Notes: generated by a model from the letters alone, not told the origin. DNA of 64,000 nucleotides from Vulcanimicrobiota bacterium (GCA_039809865.1 JBDHVW010000023.1:14947-78946); one strand, 5' to 3'; positions 6,434 to 39,005 are shown, counted from the first letter of the stretch. Numbers and translations are program-made.

Positions 6434-6960
6434 GGGCGGGCCACCTCGGCCTGCAGCGTGACCACGCCGGCCCCTTCCTGCACCGAAAGGCGCACTTGCA
6501 TGAGGCCCGGCTCCAGCCAGGCGGCCGAGAGCCCGACCGACTCGGCCACCACCGAGCGACGCCCCTCGATCTCGCGCACCAGGTTGCGGTCCGGATCCAC
6601 GTAGAATCGCACGTTGTCCAGCGCCACGGCCGAAGGGTCGAAGCCCGTCCCGGAGGCCGGCAACCATTCCTGATTGGGCCGAGGGCGCAGCAGCTCGATC
6701 CGGCTGGCCGGAGCGCCCGTGGGCTCGAGGATCTGGTGAGCCTCCTGCAGCTCGAGACACAGCTGCGAGAGAGCGCGAGTCGATTCCAGGCGGCGATCCT
6801 GGCGCGAGTTGAACCGGAGAAACTCGGAGTAGCTCGCCAGCAGATTGGCGAGCAGGGCCATGACCAGCCCGAACAGCAGCATCGTAACGAGCGCCTCGGG
6901 GATCGTGAAGGCTCTACGGCCCAAGATCCACCACCGTCGTGCCAGAGAAGGTCCGGCCAA
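6430..6960 (-). CDS. Type IV pilin-like minor pseudopilin (GspI/J- or PilV/W-like)
   Basis: N-terminus ...RRAFTIPEALVTMLLFGLVMALLANLL is a prepilin-type N-terminal methylation-like segment. Overlaps both neighbours. Confidence 0.65.
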   Translation of the reverse strand: MAGPSLARRWWILGRRAFTIPEALVTMLLFGLVMALLANLLASYSEFLRFNSRQDRRLESTRALSQLCLELQEAHQILEPTGAPASRIELLRPRPNQEWLPASGTGFDPSAVALDNVRFYVDPDRNLVREIEGRRSVVAESVGLSAAWLEPGLMQVRLSVQEGAGVVTLQAEVARP

Positions 6961-7699
6961 AGTAGCTGGTGCTGGCCATCAGGCGTACCTGCCCGGGCCA
7001 CACCTGCCAGCCACCGGTGCGCAGCACCTTGAGCGCATTCTTGACGCGGACCTGGCGCCCGTCGCGGCTGATAGGCGGCAACAGGGTCGCGTTGCCGGTC
7101 ATGGGCACGACCGACCAGAAGAACATCGCGTCCACGGGCGCGCCGCCGGGCAGCAGCGCCGTGGCCCGGTAGTCGGCTTCCTGCTGTCCGCTCAGGGGGT
7201 TGGGCCCGCTCACCCGGTCGAGTCGGATGGTGAGGTCGTCGGCCGGGTCCAGACGGTTGGGCTCACTGATGAGCGTGGTCAGGCGCACCCGGTCGCGCGG
7301 ACCGTTCGCGCTCCAGGCCACTTCGACGGCGACCGGAAAGGCGGAGGCGGGGAAGCGCCGGGGATCCCCGGACGGGACTTCCAGGGAGGAAGCCGGGGAG
7401 AGAAGCTCGCGGGCGGGGCCGCGCTCGGTGAGGACGGTGAATCCAGGATGGTCAGGCCGTGTTTTGGAGCCTATCTTCGTCGACCAATCCGAGCTAAAAT
7501 TCGTGGAATTACGTGCCCAGAGCCGTAATTGGTCGAGCTCGGACCGCGCCAGTAAAGTCGCCTCCATCTGCCTTTGGGACCATCGGCGATAACCCAGAGC
7601 ACGATGGAAAGTGCCGACGAACATCAGCACAACGGCGGTCAAAAGGAAGATGGCCAGCACAACTTCAGAAAGCGACATCCCCCGCCATCGCCGCAGCAT
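6914..7699 (-). CDS. Type IV pilin-like minor pseudopilin (GspH/J-like)
   Basis: MLRRWRGMSLSEVVLAIFLLTAVVLMFVG matches G|MSLSEV (Gly, hydrophobic, Glu at +5). First gene of the minus-strand pilin operon. AT-rich putative promoter region 7700..7760 lies upstream. Confidence 0.65.
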   Translation of the reverse strand: MLRRWRGMSLSEVVLAIFLLTAVVLMFVGTFHRALGYRRWSQRQMEATLLARSELDQLRLWARNSTNFSSDWSTKIGSKTRPDHPGFTVLTERGPARELLSPASSLEVPSGDPRRFPASAFPVAVEVAWSANGPRDRVRLTTLISEPNRLDPADDLTIRLDRVSGPNPLSGQQEADYRATALLPGGAPVDAMFFWSVVPMTGNATLLPPISRDGRQVRVKNALKVLRTGGWQVWPGQVRLMASTSYFGRTFSGTTVVDLGP

Positions 7700-8012
7700 T
7701 GCTTCAGGTTAGCAGGCGGAATACCGAAAATCAAGCTGTTTATGGCATTGAATATCTCGCTTGGCCCCTGGTGGTAATCGACCCGGAAACCCCACCGGGT
7801 ACAGTCAGAATCGAGGCGCCGACTCACGCATAGCTCGTCCTGGCGGTTTTCCGAAATCCCGATTGAGGGCAGCTCAAGCAAGAAATCACACAATTCGAAC
7901 AGGGTTTCGAAATTGCTCGAGAAAGGCTTTTCCACGGCCCTCGGTGGACATGAAGGCCCCCGAAAGGGAGCGGACGAAGGAACTTCCACTTTCTCCCGGA
8001 GGACTACGTCTC

Positions 8013-11000
8013 ATGGCGGCCAGCCTTGCCGATCTTCAGACCTATATCAGCGAGCAGGTGAGCGGAGAGGAAGCTGCGTTCGTGCGCGGCTTCAGTGAAG
8101 TGCTGTTCGATAAAGCTTATCCGGAGTTCTTGGAGCGGTTCCAGCCCGACGGACTTCTCGCGGTCACCATGGGAGCGCTGAAGTGGATCGAGCAGGGTCC
8201 GCCCGAGCAGATCAAGGTGCGCGTCTACAAGCCGGAGGCTGCTCAGCACGGCTGGACGTGGCCCGGCAGCGCGATGGAGATCCACCTGGGCGACCGGCCC
8301 TTCCTGGTCGACAGCGTCCGCGCCGAGATCCGCCGGCACGGCTACGAAGTCGCCCACAATCTGCATCCCATCCTGCAGATTCACCGGGACGCCGACAGCA
8401 AGATCGTGCGCGCCGGCGGCAAAGGCAAGCCGAACCAGGAGTCTTATCAGCTCTTCTTGCTCGACGAGGCGCTCGAGCCGGCCCGGGCGGCCGAGCTGAC
8501 CGAAGCGGTGACCCGTGTTCTGCAGGATGTCGTTCTGGCCACCGACGACTACCCCAGGATGCGCGAGAAGGCCAACGCCATGGGCGAGTACCTCGAGCAG
8601 CAGCGCGCCGGGGTGCCCGAGGCGCGGGCCAACGAGCTGGCCGAGTACGCGCAGTTCCTGAAGTGGCTGGGGGAGGGCAATTTCGTCTTCCTCGGCTACC
8701 GCGAATACTCCATCGAGGACGCCAAGCTGAGCATGGATGAGGGCTCCAGCCTCGGCATCCTGCGCGGCACCGTGAAGACTTCCAACTACCGCGATCCGGT
8801 GCCGCTGGCCAAGCTGCCCGAGAACCTGCGCCAGCGCATCACCAGCGGTCCCCTGGTGGTGGTCACCAAGTCGAACGCCGAGTCGACCGTCCATCGCCCT
8901 GTGCGCATGGACTACGTCGGGGTCAAGAAGCTCGAGAACGGCCAGGCGGCCGGCGAGCTGCGCCTGCTGGGACTGTTTACCAGCACGGCCCTGGCCACGC
9001 CCTGTAAAGACATTCCCATCCTACGTCTCAAGCTCGCCATCGTGCTGGAGCTGGACGGCAGCCCCGAAGGCTCGCACGACTTCAAGCAGATCGTGACCAC
9101 GTTCAATTCCCTGCCGCGCGAGGAGCTCTTCTGGGGCGAGCCGGAGCAGATTCTGGCCGAGATCCGCACCATCATGCAGCTCGAGTCCGAGAATCGCGTG
9201 CGCCTCACCCTGCGCCGCGATCCGCTGGCCCGAGGCGTGCTGGTGATGGTGGTCATGCCCCGCGAGCGCTTCAACGGCGAGGTTCGTCTCAAGATTCAGG
9301 AGCTGCTGCACGAGCGCTTCAAGGCCGAGCACGTGGACTACCAGCTCTCCATCGGCGAGGACATGTCCCAGGTCCGCTTCCACTTCTTCTTGACGACCGA
9401 GTTCGGGGTCGAGGACACCGACCTCAAGTCGCTGGAAGCCGACGTGGCAGCCCTGACCCGCACCTGGGACGACCTGTTGGAGGAGGCCCTGCGGGCCCGA
9501 TTCGGGGAGAGCAAAGGGCAGCTGCTGGCCGATTGCTATCGGGGCGCCTTCAACGACGCGTACAAAGCCTGCAATAGCCCCGCCTGGGCCGCCGAAGACG
9601 TGGGCCGCATGGAGGAGTTCGACGGGCGTGATTACCTGGTGGGCGTGCACTCCGACGCCGACGTCACCTGGCTCAAGATCTACCATCGGCGCCACAACCT
9701 GACCCTGTCCGACACCATGCCTTTCCTCGAGAACCTCTCGCTGGTCGTGCTCGAGCAGCTCTCCTTCGGGGTGAAGTGCAAGGACAAGTCGCCCTGCGGC
9801 GTCGACGTCTACCGCGTGCTCAATCGCGCCCGTCAGCCGCTGCCCGAGAAGGTCCACGCGCCCCTGTGCGAGGCCCTGGTGGCCCTGCTCGACGGCCGGG
9901 CGGTGGACGACCGTCTCAATGGCCTGGTCCTGGCCGCCAGCCTGGATATCCGGCAGGTGTCGCTGCTGCGGGTCTACCAGCTCTACCTGGGGCAGATCCA
10001 GTCGATCAGCCGGCGCTTCATCAACGACACCATGCTCAAGCATCCCAACTGCGCCCGGCTGCTCTACGACCTGTTCGAGGCCCGCTTCCAGCCCGGGCTG
10101 GCCAACCGCGAGCAGGCGGCGGAGGCGGTCAAAGAACGCTTCATGTCAGCGCTGAACGACGTCACCAGCCTGGTCGAGGACCAGACGCTGCGCGCCCTTT
10201 CCAACCTGATCGACGCCACGCTGCGAGCCAGCTTTTACCTCGGCCACGATCGCATCAGCTTGAAGATCAGCAGCCACCTCGTCTCCTCCATGCCGGAGCC
10301 GCGTCCGCTCTACGAGATCGTGATGGCCGGCCCGGGCGTCGAGGGCATTCACCTGCGCGGCGGCAAGGTCGCCCGCGGCGGACTGCGCTGGAGCGACCGC
10401 CCCGACTTCCGCACCGAGGTGCTGGGCCTGATGAAGACCCAGATGACCAAGAACGCGGTCATCGTGCCGGTCGGCTCGAAAGGCGGCTTCCTCCTCAAGG
10501 ACCCGCCCACCGATCGCGCCGAGCTGGCCGTCTACGTCTCCGAGCGCTACAAGACGTTCATCCGCTCCCTGCTCGACCTGACCGACAACATCGTGGACGG
10601 GAAGGTCGTCCAGAACCGGGATCTGGTCATCTATGACGAGCCCGATCCCTACCTGGTCGTGGCTGCCGATAAAGGCACGGCGACGTTCAGCGACACCGCC
10701 AACGGCGTGGCCCACGAGTTCGGCTTCTGGCTGGGGGACGCGTTCGCGTCGGGCGGCTCGTATGGTTACGACCACAAGAAGGAAGGCATCACCGCCCGGG
10801 GCGCCTGGGAGTGCGTGAAGCGCCATTTCCGCGAGCTCGGGATCGACCTTTTCAAGCCCTTCACGGTGGCCGGCATCGGCGACCTGTCGGGCGACGTGTT
10901 CGGCAACGGCCTGATCTACTCCGACCAGATCAAGATGCTGGCGGCCTTCAACCACCTGCACATCTTCCTGGACCCCGATCCGGATCCGGCCAAGAGCTAC

Positions 11001-30419: not shown

Positions 30420-31256
30420 GTGAAGAAGATCCAACCCACCCCCGAGCAATGGGCGTGCCTGCTGCCCATGGAGCGTTTCCACTTCAAAGTGGTGGATGCC
30501 ATCAACCGCTCCAACTGGCTCCCTGCTATCACATCCACCCTGAACTGCCATATTTCGCGCTTCTGGGTCGAGCAATTCGTGCGCAACCACATGCAGGACC
30601 ACGGCTTCGAGAATTTCCGCAAGGTCGATCCTGCCCGCGGTGTCTTCCTGGTGGCCAATCACCGCACGTTCTATGACCAGTTCTCGATCATGGGCCGCCT
30701 CTTTACGCTTTACGGCAATCACCATCGCATCTTCTTCCCGATCCGGGCGCCTTTCTTCTACGACTCGCTGGCGGGCATGTTCGTCAACCTCTCGCTGGCG
30801 TTTGGGGCCATGTACCCGCCCATCATGCGCGAGCCCAAACGCAAGGTCTGGAACAGCTTTGCCATGGACCTGCTGGCCGAGCTGCTGCAGGACAAGCGCA
30901 ACCTGGTGGGCTTCCATCCCGAGGGCAAGCGCAGCCAGGAGCCGGACCCCTACACGCTGCTGCCGGGCAAGCTGGGCACCGGAATGGTCATCCACAAGTC
31001 GCGCGCCAACGTCGTCCCGGTTTACCTGCAGGGCTTCCCGCGCAGCGTGCTGCCCTGGCCGGGGGCCAACCTGGTCGGCAAACCGAAGCCGGTAGTGCAC
31101 GCGGTGATGGGCCCCCCGGTAGATTGCTCGGAAGAGCTGGAGATGCCGGCCGACCGGCGCACCTATATGCGCATCACCAAAAAAGTGATGGACGCGCTGG
31201 CCGCGGCGGCCGAGCGCGAACGGGCCATCCGGGCCGAATGGAGGGTAAACGCTTGA
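30420..31256 (+). CDS. 1-acyl-sn-glycerol-3-phosphate acyltransferase family (PlsC-like)
   Basis: HX4D motif NHRTFYD and FHPEGKRS (PEGTR-like) motif. Start uncertain (GTG 30420 or ATG 30468). The track start 30159 lies inside the amidase gene. Confidence 0.7.
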   Translation: MKKIQPTPEQWACLLPMERFHFKVVDAINRSNWLPAITSTLNCHISRFWVEQFVRNHMQDHGFENFRKVDPARGVFLVANHRTFYDQFSIMGRLFTLYGNHHRIFFPIRAPFFYDSLAGMFVNLSLAFGAMYPPIMREPKRKVWNSFAMDLLAELLQDKRNLVGFHPEGKRSQEPDPYTLLPGKLGTGMVIHKSRANVVPVYLQGFPRSVLPWPGANLVGKPKPVVHAVMGPPVDCSEELEMPADRRTYMRITKKVMDALAAAAERERAIRAEWRVNA

Positions 31257-31588
31257 GGACCTTATTGTTGTGCTTGTTACTGACCGGGCTGGTGTGGGCC
31301 CAGGACCTGTCGCGCCCGGAGGGCCGCTGGGAGGTCGCCCACACCGACGGCAAGACCTTCCACATCGATGTTCAGATCGACCACACATGCACCAGCGACT
31401 ACGGCGGCGGCGAGGTGGGCAGCTGGCGCTACGAGCCCGGCGTGGGCCTGACCCTGGACTGGACCGACGGCTGGCGCGACCGCATCTTCACAACGCCCGA
31501 GGGCGAGCTGGTCAAATGGGGCTGGAAGCCCGGCGCCGACCGCAACGGCGAGCCCAGTAACCGGACGAGGGCCCGCAAGCTACGCTGA
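31238..31588 (+). CDS. Small secreted protein (116 aa)
   Basis: MEGKRLRTLLLCLLLTGLVWAQD signal peptide. Overlaps the plsC-like 3' end by 19 nt. Confidence 0.5.
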   Translation: MEGKRLRTLLLCLLLTGLVWAQDLSRPEGRWEVAHTDGKTFHIDVQIDHTCTSDYGGGEVGSWRYEPGVGLTLDWTDGWRDRIFTTPEGELVKWGWKPGADRNGEPSNRTRARKLR

Positions 31589-32602
31589 CTTGCCCTCGCG
31601 TCTGGCCAGGTCTTCCGCTTTCTTCTTGAGGGCGTCCTCGCGGTAACGCAGCATCTCCTCGCGGACGTGCCGCTCGCGGTCCATCCTGGTCACGGCGCCG
31701 GCCTGCTCTTTCTCGGACAGGGCGACCTCTTGCTCGCGCGCGTCCAGAGCCTTGTCGCGCTTGTCCATGTCCAGCCATTCCTGGCCCTGGTGGCCGCGAT
31801 ACCTGGCCTCGGAGACGCCTTTGCGGATCAGGTCCACGATGGTCATCCCGCCGACGAAGCAGATGGCGCCCAGCACCACCCCGCCCACCAGCGCGCCGGC
31901 GGCGGCGCCGCCCACCAGGGTGGGGAAGTTGAGGTTGGCCGCGATCAGGCCCTGGGCCAGACCCGCGCCCGTCATGATGCCCGCGCCCATGGCCGCGCCC
32001 CCGGCCACGCCACTCAGGGTGGCCATGCCGCCGATCACCATGCCCACGTTGCGCATCGGGCCGCTGCCCAGGGAAACATAGGGACGCTGCTCGTCCGGAT
32101 CCGGGGGCGCCGGTGGAGGCGTCGCGGCCGGGGCCCCCGCGCCGTTCTTCTCCAGCCAGTGAGCGCTGGCGCCCTTCAGCGCACCGACGGCCGCACCCGG
32201 CACGAAGGCCGGCTTGCCCGCGATCTCGCCCAGAGAGTTGCCGATGCGCCAGCCACCGGCGGCGCCGCAGACGCCGCCGAGCACCATGCCGGCCGCGCCG
32301 AAAGCGTTGATCGTATGGAGCCCGGTCGTCAGGAAGCTCCAGCCGCCGTGGCTCATGGCCGCGGCCACCGGTCCGGCGAAGCCGCCGCCCAGAATGCCGC
32401 CCGCCAGGGCTCCTCCGATGACGCCGCCGTAGAGTCCCAGCATCATCAGCGAGAATCCGCCGGCTCCCGCGGAAATGTTGGAGCTCTCTTCCATCCACTC
32501 GCGCCCGGTCTCGAGAGCGGCTTCTTTGACGTCCTGGCCCAGCGTGCGCTCGGCCCGGGGTGGGGTCTGCACCGGAGCGGTGCGGACGGCTTGCACGTTC
32601 AC
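31580..32602 (-). CDS. Glycine-zipper membrane protein with C-terminal Lys/Glu coiled-coil, paralog B
   Basis: Two GxxxG-rich hydrophobic blocks (HGGWSFLTTGL...), acidic linker, and C-terminal RDKALDAREQEVALSEKEQ coiled-coil. ATGA overlap with paralog A. Confidence 0.5.
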   Translation of the reverse strand: MNVQAVRTAPVQTPPRAERTLGQDVKEAALETGREWMEESSNISAGAGGFSLMMLGLYGGVIGGALAGGILGGGFAGPVAAAMSHGGWSFLTTGLHTINAFGAAGMVLGGVCGAAGGWRIGNSLGEIAGKPAFVPGAAVGALKGASAHWLEKNGAGAPAATPPPAPPDPDEQRPYVSLGSGPMRNVGMVIGGMATLSGVAGGAAMGAGIMTGAGLAQGLIAANLNFPTLVGGAAAGALVGGVVLGAICFVGGMTIVDLIRKGVSEARYRGHQGQEWLDMDKRDKALDAREQEVALSEKEQAGAVTRMDRERHVREEMLRYREDALKKKAEDLARREGKSA

Positions 32603-33660
32603 CGCGCACCTCCCAGCTTCTGCTCGCGCTCGGCCAGCTGTTTGGCCAGCGCGTCGAGCTCCGCCTGGCGCTTGTCCAGGGCCTGGTTCTTGAGCTTGTC
32701 GTCCTCGGCCGCTTTGCCGGCGTCGACCTTGACCTTGTCAGCGCGATCCTGCAGCGCTTTCTCGCGCTCGTTCTGTTTGGCCTCGCGCTCGTTGAGCTGC
32801 TTGGCGGTGGTTTTGTGGCCGGAGGTGAGCTTGCCGCCGGTCTTGTCCCAGATCGTCTGCGCGGCCTGCACCAGCTGCAATCCACCGCGCCCGCCGATGT
32901 AGGCCAGCGCTACCGCGCCTACCAGGCCGCCCACCAGAGCCGTGGCGGGCAGGGCTGACACGAAGCCGCCCCAGGTCAGCGAGCTGGACAGCGCCGTGTG
33001 GGCCAGGCTGCCGGCGGCGGCCAGCGTGGCGCCACCCACGAATCCGCCCACGCCGCCCGAGACCGCGGCAGCCCCGGCCACCATACGGGCGGCCGGCTCG
33101 AACTTGCCGTGGAACGTCGGACCGGATTTCTTGACCGCGGGTTTCTCGTCCTCGGGCTCGGCGCCCGGGACCTCGATCCCCGCCAGTCCTTTGGCTCCGC
33201 CCACCACGAAGCCGGCTCCGAAGCCGACCCCTTTGGCCAGCTTGCCGCCGACTTTCGTGCCCAGACTGAAAGCTCCCAGCGTACCGGTGGCGCCGCCCAG
33301 GATCATTCCCACTTTGGCAGCCGTGCCGGCCGTCGTCAGAGTGGTGGTCACGAATCCCCAGGCGCCGTGGCTGGCCAGCGAGGCGACCACGGGGCCGAGT
33401 CCGGCGCCCAGCATCGTGCCCACCACCGCGCCCCCGAAAACCATCCCGTAGGTGGCCACGGCGGTGAGCGCGATGCCGGTCATGCCCCCGATGCCGAGCT
33501 CGAGCTTGTCGCCCCAGTCGGCGCCCTGGCGGACACCCGATTGCACGGCCAGTTGCGTGCGGGTTGGCGGCGTCGTTTGAGCGCGCGGAGCTTGGAAAGC
33601 GGTGGTGGTGGCTAGCGATACTTGCACGGGCTGCAGGATATGCATGCGCCCTGAAAACAC
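32599..33660 (-). CDS. Glycine-zipper membrane protein with C-terminal Lys/Glu coiled-coil, paralog A
   Basis: Same architecture (HGAWGFVTTTL..., KQLNEREAKQNEREKALQDRADK...). The antisense ORF 31667..32902 is rejected. Confidence 0.5.
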   Translation of the reverse strand: MFSGRMHILQPVQVSLATTTAFQAPRAQTTPPTRTQLAVQSGVRQGADWGDKLELGIGGMTGIALTAVATYGMVFGGAVVGTMLGAGLGPVVASLASHGAWGFVTTTLTTAGTAAKVGMILGGATGTLGAFSLGTKVGGKLAKGVGFGAGFVVGGAKGLAGIEVPGAEPEDEKPAVKKSGPTFHGKFEPAARMVAGAAAVSGGVGGFVGGATLAAAGSLAHTALSSSLTWGGFVSALPATALVGGLVGAVALAYIGGRGGLQLVQAAQTIWDKTGGKLTSGHKTTAKQLNEREAKQNEREKALQDRADKVKVDAGKAAEDDKLKNQALDKRQAELDALAKQLAEREQKLGGAR

Positions 33661-33694
33661 CCTTAAAAACCCCTGAAAAATTAATCCCGGTTTG
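33661..33694. promoter_or_regulatory. AT-rich island (CCTTAAAAACCCCTGAAAAATTAATCCCGG) between the PilZ gene and glycine-zipper paralog A; candidate internal promoter
   Basis: Strikingly AT-rich for a 70% GC window. AAATTAAT resembles a -10 element. Confidence 0.3.
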
Positions 33695-34302
33695 TTAACG
33701 GATCCCCAGGTCGAGATACCGGTTCAGCAGCGCCGTCTGCTCCGGGCTCAGGGGGAGGAAGGCCAGTCCAAAGCAGCCATCGGTCTGGTGAGCGATGCGG
33801 GCCCGGGTCTCGAGCGGCTCGACGCCCTCGGTCGGGCCGATGCGCAGAGTGACCTCGGACCCCTGCTCCAGGGCCTCGTCCAGCGTGACCAGCACGCCCC
33901 CCGGGCCGAGGTTCTCGACGTTGCCGGCCAGCTTGCCGTTGACCTGGATCGGCAGCAGGATAGGCGCGCGCACGTCGTTGCGCCGCTCGTCCCTGGAGCT
34001 GTCGAGCTGTTTCAGGGCCGACTCCACCCAGGTGCCCTCGGGCGAGCCGCAGTAGCTGCAGCCGACCTCGATGATGCTGGTGAAGCTCTTGGGCTGGCAC
34101 CACCGCACCTCGAGCTCGAGGCCTTTCCCCTCGCGGTCCTGGCGGGCGAAGACGGTCAAACGGGTCCCGGATTCGAGCTTCTGGGGGACGGCCAGACGCA
34201 TTCCCTCGGCGCCCAGATCGATGACGGTGGCGTTGAACTCGGTATCGTCTACTTCGCAGAGAATGGAGTAGCGGCTACCGAAGCGGCGGGTCTGGCGTTT
34301 CT
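33695..34302 (-). CDS. Tandem PilZ-domain protein (c-di-GMP receptor candidate)
   Basis: Two PilZ signatures: QKRQTRRFGSRYS...DLGAEGMRL and RRNDVRAPILLP...NLGPGGVLV (RxxxR ... D/NxSxxG). Putative GTG start 34302 overlaps the hyuB 3' end by 28 nt. Confidence 0.6.
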
Positions 34303-35837
34303 GTTGCAGCACGCGGCCGATCTTCGGCTTTCCCCCAACCGCCGCCTCCCGGAGTCTGAATGGACAACACCGACCCGGCCGGAAGCTCGCGGGTAAACTG
34401 CGCCGGCAACCGCTCGCGCGTGCCGTCGGGCAGCAGGAGGTGGTCCTCGCCCGGTTGGCCGGGCTCTCCACCGGCCGCGCCCGGAGGACCGGCCGCGCGA
34501 CGCTGCGCCAGCAGCGACACGGTGGCAGGCTGGAGCAACTCGACCTCCCGGACGAGCCCTTCGCCGCCCGGGAAGGCGCCGCTGCCGCCGCTGCCCCGGC
34601 GCAGCGCGTAGCGCCTCAGGCGCAGCGGGTGATCCGACTCGAGCGATTCGGCCGGCGTGTTGCGGGTATTGGTCATGTGCACCTGCAGTCCGGAGCCGCC
34701 CGTCTGGTTGCGGGCGGCTCCCGCGCCTCCGCCCGAGGTCTCGTAGTAGGCCCAGTCGCGCCCTCCCATGACGAGGTTGTTCATGGTGCCGGCCGAGCAG
34801 GCGGGCACCACGTCTGGGAGCAGCTGTCCCAGGGCCTGGAACACGACGTCCACGAGGCGCTGGGAGGTCTCGACGTTGCCGGCGGCCACGGCCGCCCAGG
34901 CGGGCGGGTTGACCAGACTTCCGGCCGGAGCCACGATGCTGACCGGGTGAAAGGCGCCCTGGTTCACTGGAATGCGGCCTCCCAGCAGGCAGAGCACGCA
35001 GTAGTAGACGGCCGCGCTGGTGACCGGGAACGGCGCATTCAGGTTGGACCGGCGGGCGTCGGCGGTGCCGCTGAAGTCGCAGTGCAGCCCGTCGTCGCGG
35101 GTTTCGAGCGTGAGCCGGAGCGGGACCCGCTCGCCCAGGTCGTCCAGAAAGTCCTCGGCGGTAACGCGGCCCCGGGGCAGCTCGCGCAGACCCTTGCGGA
35201 CCATCCGCTCGGAGTGCTCGAGCAGGGCCCGGCAGGCGGCGTGCCATTCGGTTCGACGCGCCAGCTCGGTGGTGCGCTTCTGGGCCGTGTGGTTGGCGGC
35301 CATCTGGGCCAGCAGGTCCCCTTCACGCTCGCGCGGCGTGCGCACGTTGCGCAGCAGCAGCGACCAGATGTCGCCGTTCCGACGGCCGTTTTGCACGAGT
35401 CGAACCGGCGGCAGGATGAGCCCTTCCTGGACCAGCTCGCGGGACATCGGCATGGAGCCGGCCGCCATTCCCCCCACGTCGGCGTGGTGGGCCCGCGAGG
35501 CCGCGTAACCGAGGCGCACGCCGCCCAGCGTGAGGGGGGCGACCAGCGTCAGGTCGGGGAGGTGGGTGCCGCCCCAGGTCGGGTCGTTGACCACCACCAT
35601 GTCCTTCGGACCCATGGGAACCTCGCGCGCCAGGCGCTGCATCAGTTGCGGCATCGACCCGAGGTGCACCGGGATGTGGGCCGCCTGCGCCAGCAGCTGT
35701 CCGTCGTTGTCGAACAGCGCGCACGAGAAGTCGAGGCGCTCACGGATGTTGGGCGAGAACGCCGACCTGCGCAGGGCGGCTCCCATCTCGTCGGCGATGC
35801 CCTCGAGGAGGCTCTGGAAGACGGCGAGGTCTTTCAT
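34275..35837 (-). CDS. hyuB: Hydantoinase B / 5-oxoprolinase subunit (HyuB family)
   Basis: 520 aa, family-typical regions (VVNDPTWGGTHLPD, GDLLAQMAANH). ATGA overlap with hyuA. Confidence 0.85.
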   Translation of the reverse strand: MKDLAVFQSLLEGIADEMGAALRRSAFSPNIRERLDFSCALFDNDGQLLAQAAHIPVHLGSMPQLMQRLAREVPMGPKDMVVVNDPTWGGTHLPDLTLVAPLTLGGVRLGYAASRAHHADVGGMAAGSMPMSRELVQEGLILPPVRLVQNGRRNGDIWSLLLRNVRTPREREGDLLAQMAANHTAQKRTTELARRTEWHAACRALLEHSERMVRKGLRELPRGRVTAEDFLDDLGERVPLRLTLETRDDGLHCDFSGTADARRSNLNAPFPVTSAAVYYCVLCLLGGRIPVNQGAFHPVSIVAPAGSLVNPPAWAAVAAGNVETSQRLVDVVFQALGQLLPDVVPACSAGTMNNLVMGGRDWAYYETSGGGAGAARNQTGGSGLQVHMTNTRNTPAESLESDHPLRLRRYALRRGSGGSGAFPGGEGLVREVELLQPATVSLLAQRRAAGPPGAAGGEPGQPGEDHLLLPDGTRERLPAQFTRELPAGSVLSIQTPGGGGWGKAEDRPRAATETPDPPLR

Positions 35838-37705
35838 TGGAGAGGGGGCTCCAGAATCAGGTTTTGATGGGCGTCCACGCGCGCCTTCCAGCCGTCCGCG
35901 AGGTAGGTCGTGCAGTCGAGCTGCTCGATGCGCGCCGGGCCCGCAAAGCAGTCACCCGGCTGCAACCGGGCGCGCTCGAAGCGCATCCCCTGCAATGGGC
36001 GCTCCTGCACCGGCGCGGCGGAGAAGCGCGGCCGGGGGCGGGGGCGGCGCGCGCGCAGACGCAAGGTGACCAGCTCCAGAGTGTAGTCTGGCCGCGCATA
36101 GCCGTAGCGCCGCTTGTGGCGCCGCTCGAAGGCCGTGCGCAGATCCGGCGTGAAGGGCACCGTCAGCTCGAAGCCCTGGCCGCGGTAGCGCAGGTCGGCG
36201 AAGCGTTGAAACCTCAGCCGCGACCCCATGGCCACCCGGGCCCGCTCTTCCAGCTCGGCGAACAGCGGCTGGCACGCGTCGAAGGTTTCGGGGCCCCAGA
36301 GCTGCTGGCGCGAAACGGCAAATTCCCGCATCCAGGGAGCCACCAGGGCGCCCAGGGCCGAGAGCACGCCCGGATAGAGGGGCACCAGCACGCGCGGCAT
36401 CCCCAGCTTCTCGGCCAGGGAGCACGCGAAGAGGGGTCCCGCGCCCCCGAAGGGCACCAGGGTGAACCGCGCCGGGTCGAACCCGCGCTCCAGCGAGATC
36501 ACTCGCAGGGCGCGCTCCATGTGGGCCTCGGCCACGGCCAGCACGTGCCGGGCGGCCTCCCGCGCCTCCCCGAGACCTAGGCGCTCGAGGGCCTGGCGCG
36601 AGCGCGCGGGATCGACCGTGATCTCTCCACCGGCCAGCACCGAGGGCATGCGCTCGAGAACCAGCAGCGCATCGGTCACGGTGGCTCGCTCGCCTCGTCC
36701 GTAGGCGGCCGGACCGGGGTCGGACCCGGCCGACTCGGGGCCAACCCGCAGGACCCCCCCGTCGTCCAACCAGGCCAGCGAGCCGCCCCCGGCGCCCACG
36801 GTGTGGACGTCGATCATCAGCTGGCGGACGGGGAGCTGCTCCAACTCGCCCTCGGCCGTGTAGGCCACCTCGCCCGGGCAGAGCGATACGTCGGTGGACG
36901 TTCCGCCCATGTCCAGGGTGACGATGGCCGGAAAGCCGGCCTGGCGGGCCACCTCGAACGCTCCGTGGACGCCCGCCGCCGGTCCCGACAGCACGGCCGC
37001 CACGGCCCGCTGCGAGGCCTCGGCCGCGCTCATCACGGCCCCGGCCGAGTGCACTACGAAGAACTTGCGGCAACCGCGGCGCGCCAGCTCCCGATCGAGC
37101 TCCTCGAGGTAGCGCCCCAGGACGGGCTGCAGGTAGGCGTTCAGCACGGTCGTGGAGGCGCGCTCGTACTCGCGCATCTCGCCGCAGACCTGATGGGAGA
37201 GCGATACCGGCAGGCCCGGGAGGGCCTCGGCCACGGCCAGCTCGTGCTCGGGACGCAGGAAGCTGAACAGAAGGCAGACGGCGACCGACTCGATCCCTTC
37301 GAGCGGAAACTCCTCGGGCAGCCGTAGGGGCTCCAGCACCTCGCCGTTGGCCGCCACCCGCTCGTGGACCTCGAGCGTATGGCGCGTGAGCGGCTCGGCT
37401 TTGCGAGGGACCAGCGCATAGAGGTCGGGGCGCGTGCCCCGGCCCAGCTCGAGCAGATCGGCGAAACCGGCGGTCGTGATCAGCGCCGTGCGCGCGCCCC
37501 TTCGTTCCAGAAAGGCGTTGGTTCCAACGGTGGTGCCCAGGGCCAGCTCGAAGGGAGCGCGCGGGCCCAGTTTCTCCAGCCCGCGCAGCACTCCGGGGGC
37601 GGCCGAGGGTCGGGTGGTGCTGACTTTGGCCAGGTGCAGGCGCCCGTCCTGGAACAGCACCAGATCGGTGAAGGTGCCGCCCGTATCCACGCCCACGAGG
37701 CTCAC
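35834..37705 (-). CDS. hyuA: Hydantoinase A / 5-oxoprolinase subunit (HyuA family)
   Basis: VSLVGVDTGGTFTDLVL N-terminal ATPase motif. GTG 37705 preferred. The longer track start at 37831 translates the 27-bp repeat array (MDRSCRRCFVDRSCRRC...). Confidence 0.85.
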   Translation of the reverse strand: MSLVGVDTGGTFTDLVLFQDGRLHLAKVSTTRPSAAPGVLRGLEKLGPRAPFELALGTTVGTNAFLERRGARTALITTAGFADLLELGRGTRPDLYALVPRKAEPLTRHTLEVHERVAANGEVLEPLRLPEEFPLEGIESVAVCLLFSFLRPEHELAVAEALPGLPVSLSHQVCGEMREYERASTTVLNAYLQPVLGRYLEELDRELARRGCRKFFVVHSAGAVMSAAEASQRAVAAVLSGPAAGVHGAFEVARQAGFPAIVTLDMGGTSTDVSLCPGEVAYTAEGELEQLPVRQLMIDVHTVGAGGGSLAWLDDGGVLRVGPESAGSDPGPAAYGRGERATVTDALLVLERMPSVLAGGEITVDPARSRQALERLGLGEAREAARHVLAVAEAHMERALRVISLERGFDPARFTLVPFGGAGPLFACSLAEKLGMPRVLVPLYPGVLSALGALVAPWMREFAVSRQQLWGPETFDACQPLFAELEERARVAMGSRLRFQRFADLRYRGQGFELTVPFTPDLRTAFERRHKRRYGYARPDYTLELVTLRLRARRPRPRPRFSAAPVQERPLQGMRFERARLQPGDCFAGPARIEQLDCTTYLADGWKARVDAHQNLILEPPLQ

Positions 37706-37753
37706 CTGGAGTTCTGTCGCCCCGGGGGCCTGAAGGTCCTGCCCGCACCCCCC

Positions 37754-37834
37754 ACAGCGACGACAGGAGCGGTCCACGAAACAGCGACGACAGGAGCGGT
37801 CCACGAAACAGCGACGACAGGAGCGGTCCACGGG
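37754..37834. repeat. 3 x 27-bp perfect/near-perfect direct tandem repeat (CAGCGACGACAGGAGCGGTCCACGAAA) in the hyuA / 37857-gene divergent intergenic region
   Basis: Read directly. Copies at 37754, 37781 and 37808 (third copy ends ...CACGGGT). Confidence 0.85.
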
Positions 37835-37856: not shown

Positions 37857-39005
37857 ATGCAATTTGGCGACGCGATCAACAACGCTTTCGAGCGCACCAA
37901 GTATCTACTCTGGGAGCGCCGCTCCCGCACCCGCTGGCGCAACTTCGCGCTCCTGAGCTGGCTCTGCGGCTATTCGGGCGGAGGCGGCGGGGGAGGCGGC
38001 GGCGACTTCAGCTCGCTGTTCAAAGGCACCGGTGACAAGCGCGACACCTCGATGCGGTTGCTGCTCGGGTGCTCGCTGGCCTCGGCCCTGGGCGCGGGCG
38101 CGAGCGAGTTCGACGAGATCAAGCCCTACATCGGCCTGATCCTGGTGCTGTGCCTGGGCATCTTCGCCCTGAGCATGTTCGTGCTCTACGCCAGCAACTT
38201 CGCCCGCGTCATCCTGGTCGAGAACATCGTGCACGACCGCGACGCGATCGCCGAGCCCTGGTCCCGCCTTTCCGGCATGGGCTGGTCGGTGCTCTGGTGG
38301 GGCGTGGGCTATTTCTTTGTCAGCGCCGTCATCCTCGGCCTGCTGGTGGTCGCGCCGGGCGTCGGCATCGCCGTGATGGGCGAGCACGACCCGGGCATGT
38401 ACCTCCTCTATCTCCCGTTCTTCCTCTGGCTCTTCGCGGTCTTGCTGCCGCTGGGCTTCATCCAGGGCTACTTCCAGGAGATCGTCATCCCGCTGATGTA
38501 CCGGCAGAAGTGCTCCTCGACTGAAGCCTGGGCCATCTTCAAACCCCTCTTCAACGCCCAGAAGGGCAAGTGGATCGTCTACATGCTGCTCCACTTCTTC
38601 CTGGTCATGGCGGCCAGCATCGTGGCCAGCATGATTATGCTGATGGTGCTGCTGATGGTCGGCCTCGTGCTGGGCCTGCCGACGCTGGCCATGTTCGCCG
38701 TCAGCTCGACCGCCGGCATCGTGACCGCGGTGGTCACGGGCACGCTGTTCGTGATCGCCTGCTTCGTGTTCGGCTGCCTGCTGACGATGCCGGTGACCGT
38801 GCTGGGACGCAGCTTCTCGATGTATATCCTGCAGCAGGTCGCCCCCGAGTATGGCTTCCTGCCGCTGGGTGGCCGCCCCCTGAGCGTCGACCCGATCACC
38901 GGGATGGTGCAGGGCCCCGAAGCCGGAGTCGGGCTCAACCCGGCCGAGACGCAGCCGATGCCGACCGAATCCTCCGAGTGGAGCGACATGCCCCCCCATG
39001 GATAA
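37857..39005 (+). CDS. Polytopic membrane protein of unknown function with poly-Gly stretch
   Basis: 382 aa with multiple long hydrophobic segments and a GGGGGGGGG run. The antisense ORF 37905..39083 is rejected. Confidence 0.6.

Follow-up and report, generated by a model that had tools for sequence, protein, structure and literature searches.

Two adjacent genes for Gly/Ala-rich proteins, here called paralogs A and B, lie behind hyuA, hyuB and a gene for a tandem-PilZ protein in a 64-kb stretch of DNA from a Vulcanimicrobiota bacterium (GCA_039809865.1 JBDHVW010000023.1:14947-78946; hereafter the window, whose positions are used throughout). This locus raises the question of whether the two are genes at all and, if so, whether they specify a membrane device controlled by cyclic di-GMP (c-di-GMP), as had been suggested in an original prediction. 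Sequence comparisons indicate that A and B are genuine genes of a rare unannotated family almost confined to Xenobia/UBP9 (Eremiobacterota), and we read them tentatively, with close to an even chance, as a heteromeric coiled-coil scaffold anchored in the cell's own inner membrane. Both genes are on the minus strand. Gene A (32599-33645) codes for 348 amino acids (aa) when started at ATG 33645, as gene callers did on further contigs of this organism (L009-L011), and gene B (31580-32602) for 340 aa from a GTG start. The length predicted for B was thus correct, and the 353 aa predicted for A are obtained only from an alternative start, GTG 33660. The two genes are coupled by a 4-nt overlap, as had been proposed, and the overlap is kept in all three close lineages, that is, in the window and in the two lineages closest to it (L007, L008 and L016; L012-L015). 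In the window, however, the junction reads GTGA, the GTG start of B overlapping the stop codon of A, and not ATGA, which is the form found in the relatives L007 and L016.

A rare protein family of Xenobia/UBP9

The family is defined by a core of about 235 aa, located behind a leader of 30-70 aa. A word-indexed search of 5.8 billion proteins returned 10 relatives of A and 6 of B, and an exhaustive search of 1.84 billion representatives with a profile of the core yielded 102 clusters, 81 of them at E <= 1e-10, in which the core was always N-terminal. A scan of one genome per species gave 18 genome loci, in metagenome-assembled genomes (MAGs) titled UBP9, Candidatus Xenobia, Candidatus Eremiobacteraeota, Vulcanimicrobiota or 'bacterium', and several genomes carried two or more family loci. 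Three of the 18 loci (L019, L025 and L032; records CAZQPM01 and CAZYPN01) were titled 'uncultured Burkholderiales'. Their cassettes were close to those of UBP9 MAGs, L019 with 84-91% core identity and L032 by clustering with L026, L029 and L031, and the label of these bins is, judging from such similarity, probably wrong. Metagenomes contributed only 7 family loci among 241 million records, and no family match was found in phage, plasmid and viral-contig collections.

The original prediction had not been able to place the architecture in a named family. Searches of A, B and other members against Pfam, NCBIfam, PADLOC and PHROGs assigned no family and gave generic coiled-coil matches together with one weak tape-measure match; a profile search of PDB sequences gave no match, and we found no description of the family in the literature. 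None of the Pfam glycine-zipper families (Gly-zipper_Omp, Gly-zipper_YMGG, Rick_17kDa_Anti and similar) matched A or B at E <= 0.1, and the sole Pfam match of B was Lipoprotein_18 (E 0.071, below the family cut-off). When 67 members were compared with Pfam at E <= 0.01, no glycine-zipper family occurred among the 25 of 27 matched families that were listed, nearly all of which were generic coiled-coil or helical families. Long-tailed members showed weak, generic matches to the RNase_Y_N, Filament and crescentin-rod models, all below curated cut-offs. A phage tape-measure fragment was also considered and was rejected: the only PHROG match, that of B, was weak (E 0.0087 over 70 aa), the context was chromosomal, and the phage, plasmid and viral collections were empty of the family.

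The high GC content of the region (about 70%) and the long antisense open reading frames (ORFs) overlapping both genes could be taken as signs that base composition has given rise to A and B as spurious Gly/Ala-rich ORFs. The original prediction had held that lack of the pair in related genomes, together with lack of expression, would point in this direction, but the pair is kept there, with 86% identity in the core and 70-73% over the whole protein between close lineages. Both genes showed dN/dS values of 0.27-0.36 against the two closest lineages, which indicates purifying selection, and orthologs from many genomes share invariant Gly, Tyr and Phe columns. Besides, the family comprises the 81 representative clusters mentioned above and includes a member in a genome of 45% GC (L037). 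Because of the conservation of the pair, the dN/dS of about 0.3 and the member at 45% GC, we excluded spurious GC-driven ORFs, and the chance that they account for A and B is practically nil.

Three architectures were observed. The majority of members carry the core followed by a charged coiled-coil tail of 230-450 aa, others carry the core and a second Gly/Ala-rich hydrophobic domain, and the remainder consist of the core alone. The tail thus varies (long coiled coil, second hydrophobic domain or none) while the core is kept; the tails of A and B in the window are the shortest of the coiled-coil class. Members P0001-P0116 share an N-terminus of the form M-[K/N/Q]-[I/V]-[Q/T/N]-[T/S], with I or V at position 3 in 61 of 87, and behind it a Pro/Ala/Thr/Ser-rich stretch with few acidic residues and often (E)PKD(S/G)F ahead of the core. 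This pattern may be a signal for sorting or export, or may act as a binding peptide. In members of the P0004 type (for example, L005 8001-9263), the second C-terminal domain is rich in Gly, Ala and His, and a 139-aa protein encoded directly downstream (L005 9277-9696; L034 9155-9583) is homologous to that domain (BLASTP E = 2e-12). A gene for an ankyrin-repeat protein lies upstream of the P0004-type member, on the opposite strand.

The core domain and its predicted topology

Each of the two proteins has a Pro/Ala/Thr-rich leader, two long uncharged Gly/Ala-rich blocks separated by a linker, and a highly charged tail. In A these are the leader (aa 1-47), hairpin block 1 (aa 48-157, 33175-33504), a Pro/acidic linker (aa 158-184), hairpin block 2 (aa 185-259, 32869-33093) and a charged helical tail (aa 260-348, 32602-32868). 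The corresponding parts of B, also on the minus strand, are the leader (aa 1-42), block 1 (aa 43-146, 32165-32476), a Pro-rich linker (aa 147-182), block 2 (aa 183-264, 31811-32056) and a charged helical tail (aa 265-340, 31583-31810). The H-G-x-W-x-F-x-T-T motif reported for both proteins was found in the translations, together with the two hydrophobic blocks and the linker, at residues 93-101 of A (HGAWGFVTT, 33343-33369) and 85-93 of B (HGGWSFLTT, 32324-32350); within it, only the G and the F are invariant across the family. A and B are similar to each other with BLASTP E = 2e-10 (36% identity over 133 aa; 30% in the core), contain 19 and 23 GxxxG motifs, respectively, and score 283 bits each against the core profile. 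Invariant core positions include, in A numbering, G54, Y66, V69, GGA71-73, G76, G80, G82, G94 and F98, and the invariant alignment columns hold Gly, Tyr, Val, Ala and Phe.

A first AF2 model of the core from 16 sequences was poor (pLDDT 60.7). With 67 sequences the core was predicted to be all-helical (pLDDT 78.5, pTM 0.60), with helices at 2-45, 49-70 and 73-119, a linker, and helices at 147-184 and 190-240. BLASTP, composition and these models together uphold the description of A and B as paralogous, glycine-zipper-rich, helical proteins of membrane type with helical tails. Since hhalign relates block 1 to block 2 (90% probability, E = 1.6e-6, 81 columns), the core is an internal duplication of a helical hairpin with a glycine zipper. 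Two such blocks per protein are indicated by hydropathy and by the AF2 helices, and the hairpin tips of about 14-28 aa are almost uncharged. Over 67 members, the mean number of Lys plus Arg residues was 0.3-0.4 per hairpin tip, 1.6 before the first transmembrane segment (TM1), 1.7 after TM2, 4.4 in the linker and 3.4 after TM4. Positively charged residues of membrane proteins are retained on the inner side (the positive-inside rule), and because the observed distribution fits this rule, the N-terminus, the linker and the C-terminus are predicted to be inside, so that the tails would lie in the cytoplasm.

The duplicated unit is not always kept in one chain. Some representatives matched only one half of the core in the profile search, and in proteins with a single hairpin this was joined either to coiled coils or to regions of helical repeats exceeding 1,000 aa. 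In the 45% GC genome (L037) two overlapping genes divide the core between them, one coding for hairpin 1 alone (7468-8001, 177 aa) and one for hairpin 2 with the coiled coil (8001-9260, 419 aa), which suggests that the hairpins can work as separate, assembling chains; the gene for partner protein C, described below, comes next. Similarly, in P0090 (1482 aa), P0104 (1474 aa), P0097 (840 aa) and P0114 (536 aa), the leader precedes one block-2-type hairpin, and very long arrays of helical repeats, each of about 115 aa, come behind it; these proteins match no Pfam family. This layout suggests that the hairpin is a portable N-terminal anchor for other domains. A glycine-zipper hairpin that occurs duplicated, split in two genes or singly offers a compact and testable model for the way in which membrane assemblies are built by packing helices through small residues.

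The original prediction had ascribed to both proteins a long Lys/Glu/Gln heptad coiled coil. A charged helical tail is indeed present in each, and in A it was predicted as a single long helix (residues 280-347 with pLDDT >90; AF2, 16 sequences). However, the heptad (3.5-residue) periodicity was modest in A, whose value was reached by 1.6% of shuffles, and not significant in B (14.5% of shuffles).

Gene order, the upstream element and the PilZ gene

The closest lineages (about 70% identity) keep A and B together but at different sites. In L007, L008 and L016 the pair lies behind a divergent RraA-like gene and ahead of an MFS transporter gene, and in L012-L015 behind divergent CbiQ/TruA. Farther away, A of the window groups with the first gene of the L019, L020 and L036 pairs (51-53% core identity) and B with the second gene (61%), the identity between the two types being about 30%. 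On the basis of this grouping, A and B are ancient ortholog groups, always found in tandem.

Many family genes are accompanied by a third gene, C, whose product of about 355-390 aa begins with a charged helix and contains four membrane segments rich in Gly and Ala, two beta-rich loops and, at the C-terminus, the conserved sequence NVLRK(T/S)(L/I). C adjoins family genes at 13 of 23 non-redundant loci, and also at further metagenome loci and in L037; examples are L020 11506-12636, L026 9525-10595, L027 8114-9190, L018 4487-5518, L037 9283-10359 and L038 9505-10635. It sits beside coiled-coil members, including the L019, L020 and L036 pairs and many single-copy loci. C matches no Pfam family, and it was absent from the whole 64-kb window and from L007 and L012. 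The other conserved neighbours identified with Pfam had no common theme and comprised BtpA-like, TPR, Kef-type transporter and MMPL proteins and unknowns. The proteins define an undescribed family and a conserved A-B(-C) cassette in the candidate class Xenobia/UBP9 (Eremiobacterota), for which there are almost no cultured representatives and no functional genetics.

Upstream of A, the original prediction had noted an AT-rich island of 34 bp. The AT-rich spacer exists, but it measures 49 nt between the PilZ gene and A, with 45% GC versus about 68% locally; what had been seen as an island is a three-copy 11-nt repeat, TTTTTCAGGG, at 33649-33680 (TRF), and the region is conserved in relatives. 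An alignment of four close loci, together with TRF, delimited a conserved non-coding element 5' of A (33649-33700, minus strand) with the 52-nt pattern CGTTAACA-N-CGG-N-TTTTCAG-N-TTTTTAAG-N-TG-TTTCAG, in which the CGTTAACA box is invariant. The stop codon TAA of the PilZ gene falls inside the GTTAAC of the element. The same element is found at L007 (~6735-6795), L012 (~7945-8000) and L016 (~105-165), and it travels with A-B regardless of whether the upstream gene is PilZ, divergent RraA or divergent CbiQ; because it is retained under these different genes, the pair appears to have its own control region. In L007 and L012 the spacer upstream of A measures 82-91 nt and the upstream gene is divergent, and therefore the pair must be transcribed from this spacer. 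The element is most likely the promoter/operator of the pair and a candidate non-sigma-70 one, judging from its position and conservation; a sigma-70 promoter scan found none, and the element lacks a sigma-70 consensus. No terminator was found between PilZ and A, and since Rfam gave no match on 31000-35000, we consider that no riboswitch is present. Related motifs of the TTTTCAGG type were observed upstream of the distant members L026, L029, L031, L032 and L035.

Could the tandem-PilZ protein sense c-di-GMP and control A and B as parts of one module? The series expected on the minus strand, with hyuA and hyuB followed by an overlapping protein of two PilZ domains and then by A and B, was confirmed by the ORF list, the sequence and Pfam. 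The PilZ gene (33695-34312, minus strand, start GTG 34312 as called on L009) codes for 205 aa and matches PilZ (PF07238) over two stretches with 80.1 bits versus a cut-off of 22.5. The RxxxR motif is intact in both domains (R6-Q-T-R-R10 and R111-N-D-V-R115), and by score and RxxxR the product qualifies as a bona fide PilZ-domain protein with putative c-di-GMP binding. In favour of a module, PilZ, A and B share a strand, the gap of 49 nt contains no terminator-like site, and the spacing from RxxxR to the second motif is normal. That second motif, however, reads D32-L-G-A-E-G and N134-L-G-P-G-G and thus departs from (D/N)xSxxG in both domains, Ser being replaced by Gly, even though its position is right. 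The PilZ gene overlaps hyuB by 38 nt, which couples it to hyuAB, and the pair keeps its own element whatever lies upstream. The protein also has no detectable relatives, as the search of 5.8 billion proteins returned only itself.

Synteny speaks against such a module. Across about 30 non-redundant family loci, the PilZ, hyuA and hyuB genes of the window were confined to contigs of the same organism (L009-L011) and missing elsewhere, including in the two closest lineages. We therefore rejected a conserved PilZ module, and recurrence of PilZ with the pair in other genomes, which had been proposed as a check, was looked for and did not extend beyond this organism. A device controlled by c-di-GMP through this protein is accordingly very unlikely, and the best explanation of the adjacency, as far as gene order can tell, is a local accident. 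In PilZ-coupled machines such as BcsA, Alg44 and YcgR-stator, the PilZ domain is reportedly fused to, or reproducibly encoded with, its target. The present locus resembles them in having a PilZ-domain gene beside membrane protein genes, and differs in that the adjacency is limited to one organism. For annotation, the lesson is that proximity to PilZ in one genome is no evidence of c-di-GMP control.

The remaining genes of the region provide context only. hyuB (34275-35837, minus strand; Pfam Hydantoinase_B 3.6e-183) codes for the B subunit of hydantoinase/oxoprolinase and overlaps hyuA by 4 nt. hyuA, the gene for the A subunit (35834-37705, minus strand; Hydantoinase_A 3e-83, Hydant_A_N 4e-41), is outside the module. 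Its full ORF spans 35834-37831, and because the 42 leading codons traverse a 27-bp tandem repeat, the start is probably GTG 37705. This repeat, ACAGCGACGACAGGAGCGGTCCACGAA on the plus strand, is perfect, comprises 2.9 copies (37754-37832) and is located in the spacer from which hyuA and the gene for a DUF7544 membrane protein (37857-39005) diverge, where it lengthens the hyuA ORF by those 42 codons. On the other side of the pair, a small plus-strand gene (31238-31588) is convergent with B and shares 9 nt with the 3' end of B. It encodes a predicted secreted protein with the N-terminus MEGKRLRTLLLCLLLTGLVWAQ, called with 111-116 aa on L009-L011; Pfam assigned no family to the product, and a terminator-like site is lacking between this gene and B. 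The wider surroundings are ordinary chromosome, with genes for NAD-glutamate dehydrogenase, polyphosphate kinase, an OPT transporter, MalQ, a hybrid histidine kinase and, by Pfam, a T2SS-F protein, an amidase and an acyltransferase. Pfam found no secretion or phage genes around the pair in the 64-kb window.

Possible functions and comparison with known systems

Taken together, the sequence data point to a self-contained, chromosomal and vertically inherited complex of two obligately paired subunits. We favour a scaffold because the searches revealed neither a delivery domain or secretion locus nor a mobile-element context or a match to defence systems. A and B would be the two subunits of a cytoplasmic-membrane complex specific to the Xenobia/UBP9 lineage (Eremiobacterota), each anchored by two copies of the glycine-zipper hairpin, with the N-terminus, linker and C-terminus inside and the hairpin tips on the far side of the membrane or buried in it. 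The GxxxG-rich helices of A and B would pack together to form a hetero-oligomeric platform in the membrane, and the charged alpha-helical or coiled-coil tail of each subunit would project into the cytoplasm. With about 70 aa here and as many as about 450 aa in relatives, the tails would be stalks whose length can evolve and by which something at the membrane is tethered or organised. The ancestral cassette may have been A-B-C, with C no longer adjacent and both tails shortened in the lineage of the window. If this is true, the family would be a lineage-specific membrane-anchored cytoskeletal element.

That A and B form heteromers, lie in the cell's own membrane and serve as a scaffold is what we infer, and several observations weigh against it. 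The scaffold role is a conservative default rather than a demonstrated function, and no conserved neighbour identified with Pfam at the family loci indicates a cellular process. The heptad periodicity of the short tails in the window is weak. Several helices are only marginally hydrophobic (Kyte-Doolittle 19-residue means of 1.2-1.4, exceeding 1.6 in only two segments per protein), and the predicted core helices of 40-50 residues exceed the span of a bilayer. Because the helices are both marginally hydrophobic and longer than that span, the proteins may switch from a soluble to a membrane form, as pore formers do. A pore-forming or membrane-remodelling activity, which had been suggested for A and B from their sequence, is a possible one.

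One form of such an activity would be a two-component glycine-zipper toxin or bacteriocin that permeabilises the membranes of competitors or prey, with the neighbouring C, or the 139-aa protein beside P0004-type members, serving as immunity or helper protein. Such toxins are familiar from several systems; type VI secretion system (T6SS) effectors of the Tse4 and Ssp6 types and Caulobacter CdzC/CdzD are said to be glycine-zipper toxins that depolarise membranes. The dense GxxxG motifs of A (19) and B (23), the long and marginally hydrophobic helices, the several copies per genome and the adjoining membrane-protein genes would all suit a toxin. In the reports on TelE (PMC10434224) and EsxX (PMC12744356), glycine-zipper motifs are the active element of membrane-depolarising toxins, and a predatory lifestyle has been suggested for Eudoremicrobiaceae, which are relatives of this order (PMC9259500). 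However, Pfam identified no delivery domain (LXG, Rhs, PAAR, CdiA or similar) in the proteins and no secretion gene nearby at the family loci. PADLOC gave no match, the neighbours of the pair are housekeeping genes, and the family was not found on plasmids, phages or viral contigs. The zipper core is N-terminal and the most conserved part while the tails vary, which is the reverse of polymorphic toxins. A and B have also remained stable orthologs, their order unchanged over deep divergence and their dN/dS about 0.3. Besides, C is not beside the pair in three lineages (window, L007 and L012), a dangerous state for a toxin without its immunity protein. We consider a toxin unlikely.

A different kind of export is suggested by the Inc proteins of chlamydiae. 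These have been defined by a two-helix hydrophobic domain with a short loop, sometimes present twice, by an N-terminal signal region and by enrichment in coiled coils (PMC3048545). By analogy, the family could consist of exported effectors that start with a disordered export signal, insert one or two bilobed hairpins into a prey or host membrane and expose a variable coiled-coil or repeat domain on the other side. The architecture fits the Inc definition point by point (PMC3048545), with two bilobed hydrophobic blocks in each of A and B. The N-terminal pattern shared by the family, with its Pro/Ala/Thr/Ser-rich, acid-poor segment and frequent (E)PKDSF, agrees with a leader, and its composition is compatible with a type III signal. 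Lineage expansion with several paralog classes per genome, the swapping of C-terminal domains, including helical-repeat proteins of more than 1,400 aa, and the predation suggested for Eudoremicrobiaceae (PMC9259500) are also in line with effectors. Yet no type III or other secretion genes were present at any of the fetched family loci, which do not cover whole genomes, and there is no sign of host association for these organisms. Insertion into the cell's own inner membrane would agree just as well with the distribution of charges, partner C resembles an ordinary polytopic membrane protein, and no sequence or fold relation to Inc proteins was detected. Effectors of this kind are, in our judgement, rather improbable. 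A broader version, in which A and B belong to an unrecognised Xenobia-wide class of Inc-like or pore-type proteins, with leader-directed export, hairpins that enter a foreign membrane or remodel the cell's own, and swappable tails acting there, is also an unlikely one on the sequence features at hand. If true, a phylum with hardly any experimental biology would possess a new effector or remodelling system directed at membranes.

The likenesses and differences between A and B and these systems can be summarised as follows. With TelE and EsxX, which are type VII secretion system (T7SS) LXG proteins, A and B share repeated GxxxG helices that dominate the sequence and adjoining genes for small membrane proteins. 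The zipper domain of such toxins is short, usually C-terminal to a delivery domain or part of a small secreted peptide, and accompanied by immunity and secretion loci, whereas that of A and B is N-terminal, about 235 aa long, internally duplicated, highly conserved and outside any delivery or secretion context. Inc proteins have in common with the family a non-hydrophobic N-terminal leader, one or two bilobal domains, a variable coiled-coil C-terminal region and large lineage-specific sets of paralogs (PMC3048545). Inc proteins belong to Chlamydiae and the inclusion membrane, in contrast to a family found in Eremiobacterota/Xenobia MAGs; the blocks of A and B are longer (about 75-110 aa) and extremely Gly-rich, and the tandem A-B(-C) cassette is not an Inc feature.

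Returning to the preferred reading of a membrane-anchored scaffold, there are analogies among eukaryotic and mitochondrial proteins. Reticulon/REEP/Yop1 proteins have two hairpins and an amphipathic helix, and Mic10 of the MICOS complex has a glycine-rich hairpin. A and B resemble them, by analogy only, in the two hydrophobic hairpins, the hydrophilic linker, the soluble parts on one side and the oligomerisation predicted through small-residue motifs. The family differs in that no member matched the Pfam models of reticulon, TB2/DP1 or Mic10, and a role in curvature would be no more than an analogy here. Homology to Tim17/Tim22/Tim23 (PF02466) was rejected, there being no sequence or significant fold match. 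In bacteria, RNase Y, EzrA and cyanobacterial coiled-coil-rich proteins are membrane-anchored coiled-coil proteins, and A and B are like them, and like the N-terminal region of RNase Y in particular, in that an N-terminal membrane anchor is followed by a long cytoplasmic coiled coil. By this analogy, the family resembles hairpin-anchored coiled-coil proteins without being a member of any such group, and it is set apart from the RNase Y and EzrA type by its anchor, which is a conserved double glycine-zipper hairpin domain instead of a single transmembrane helix.

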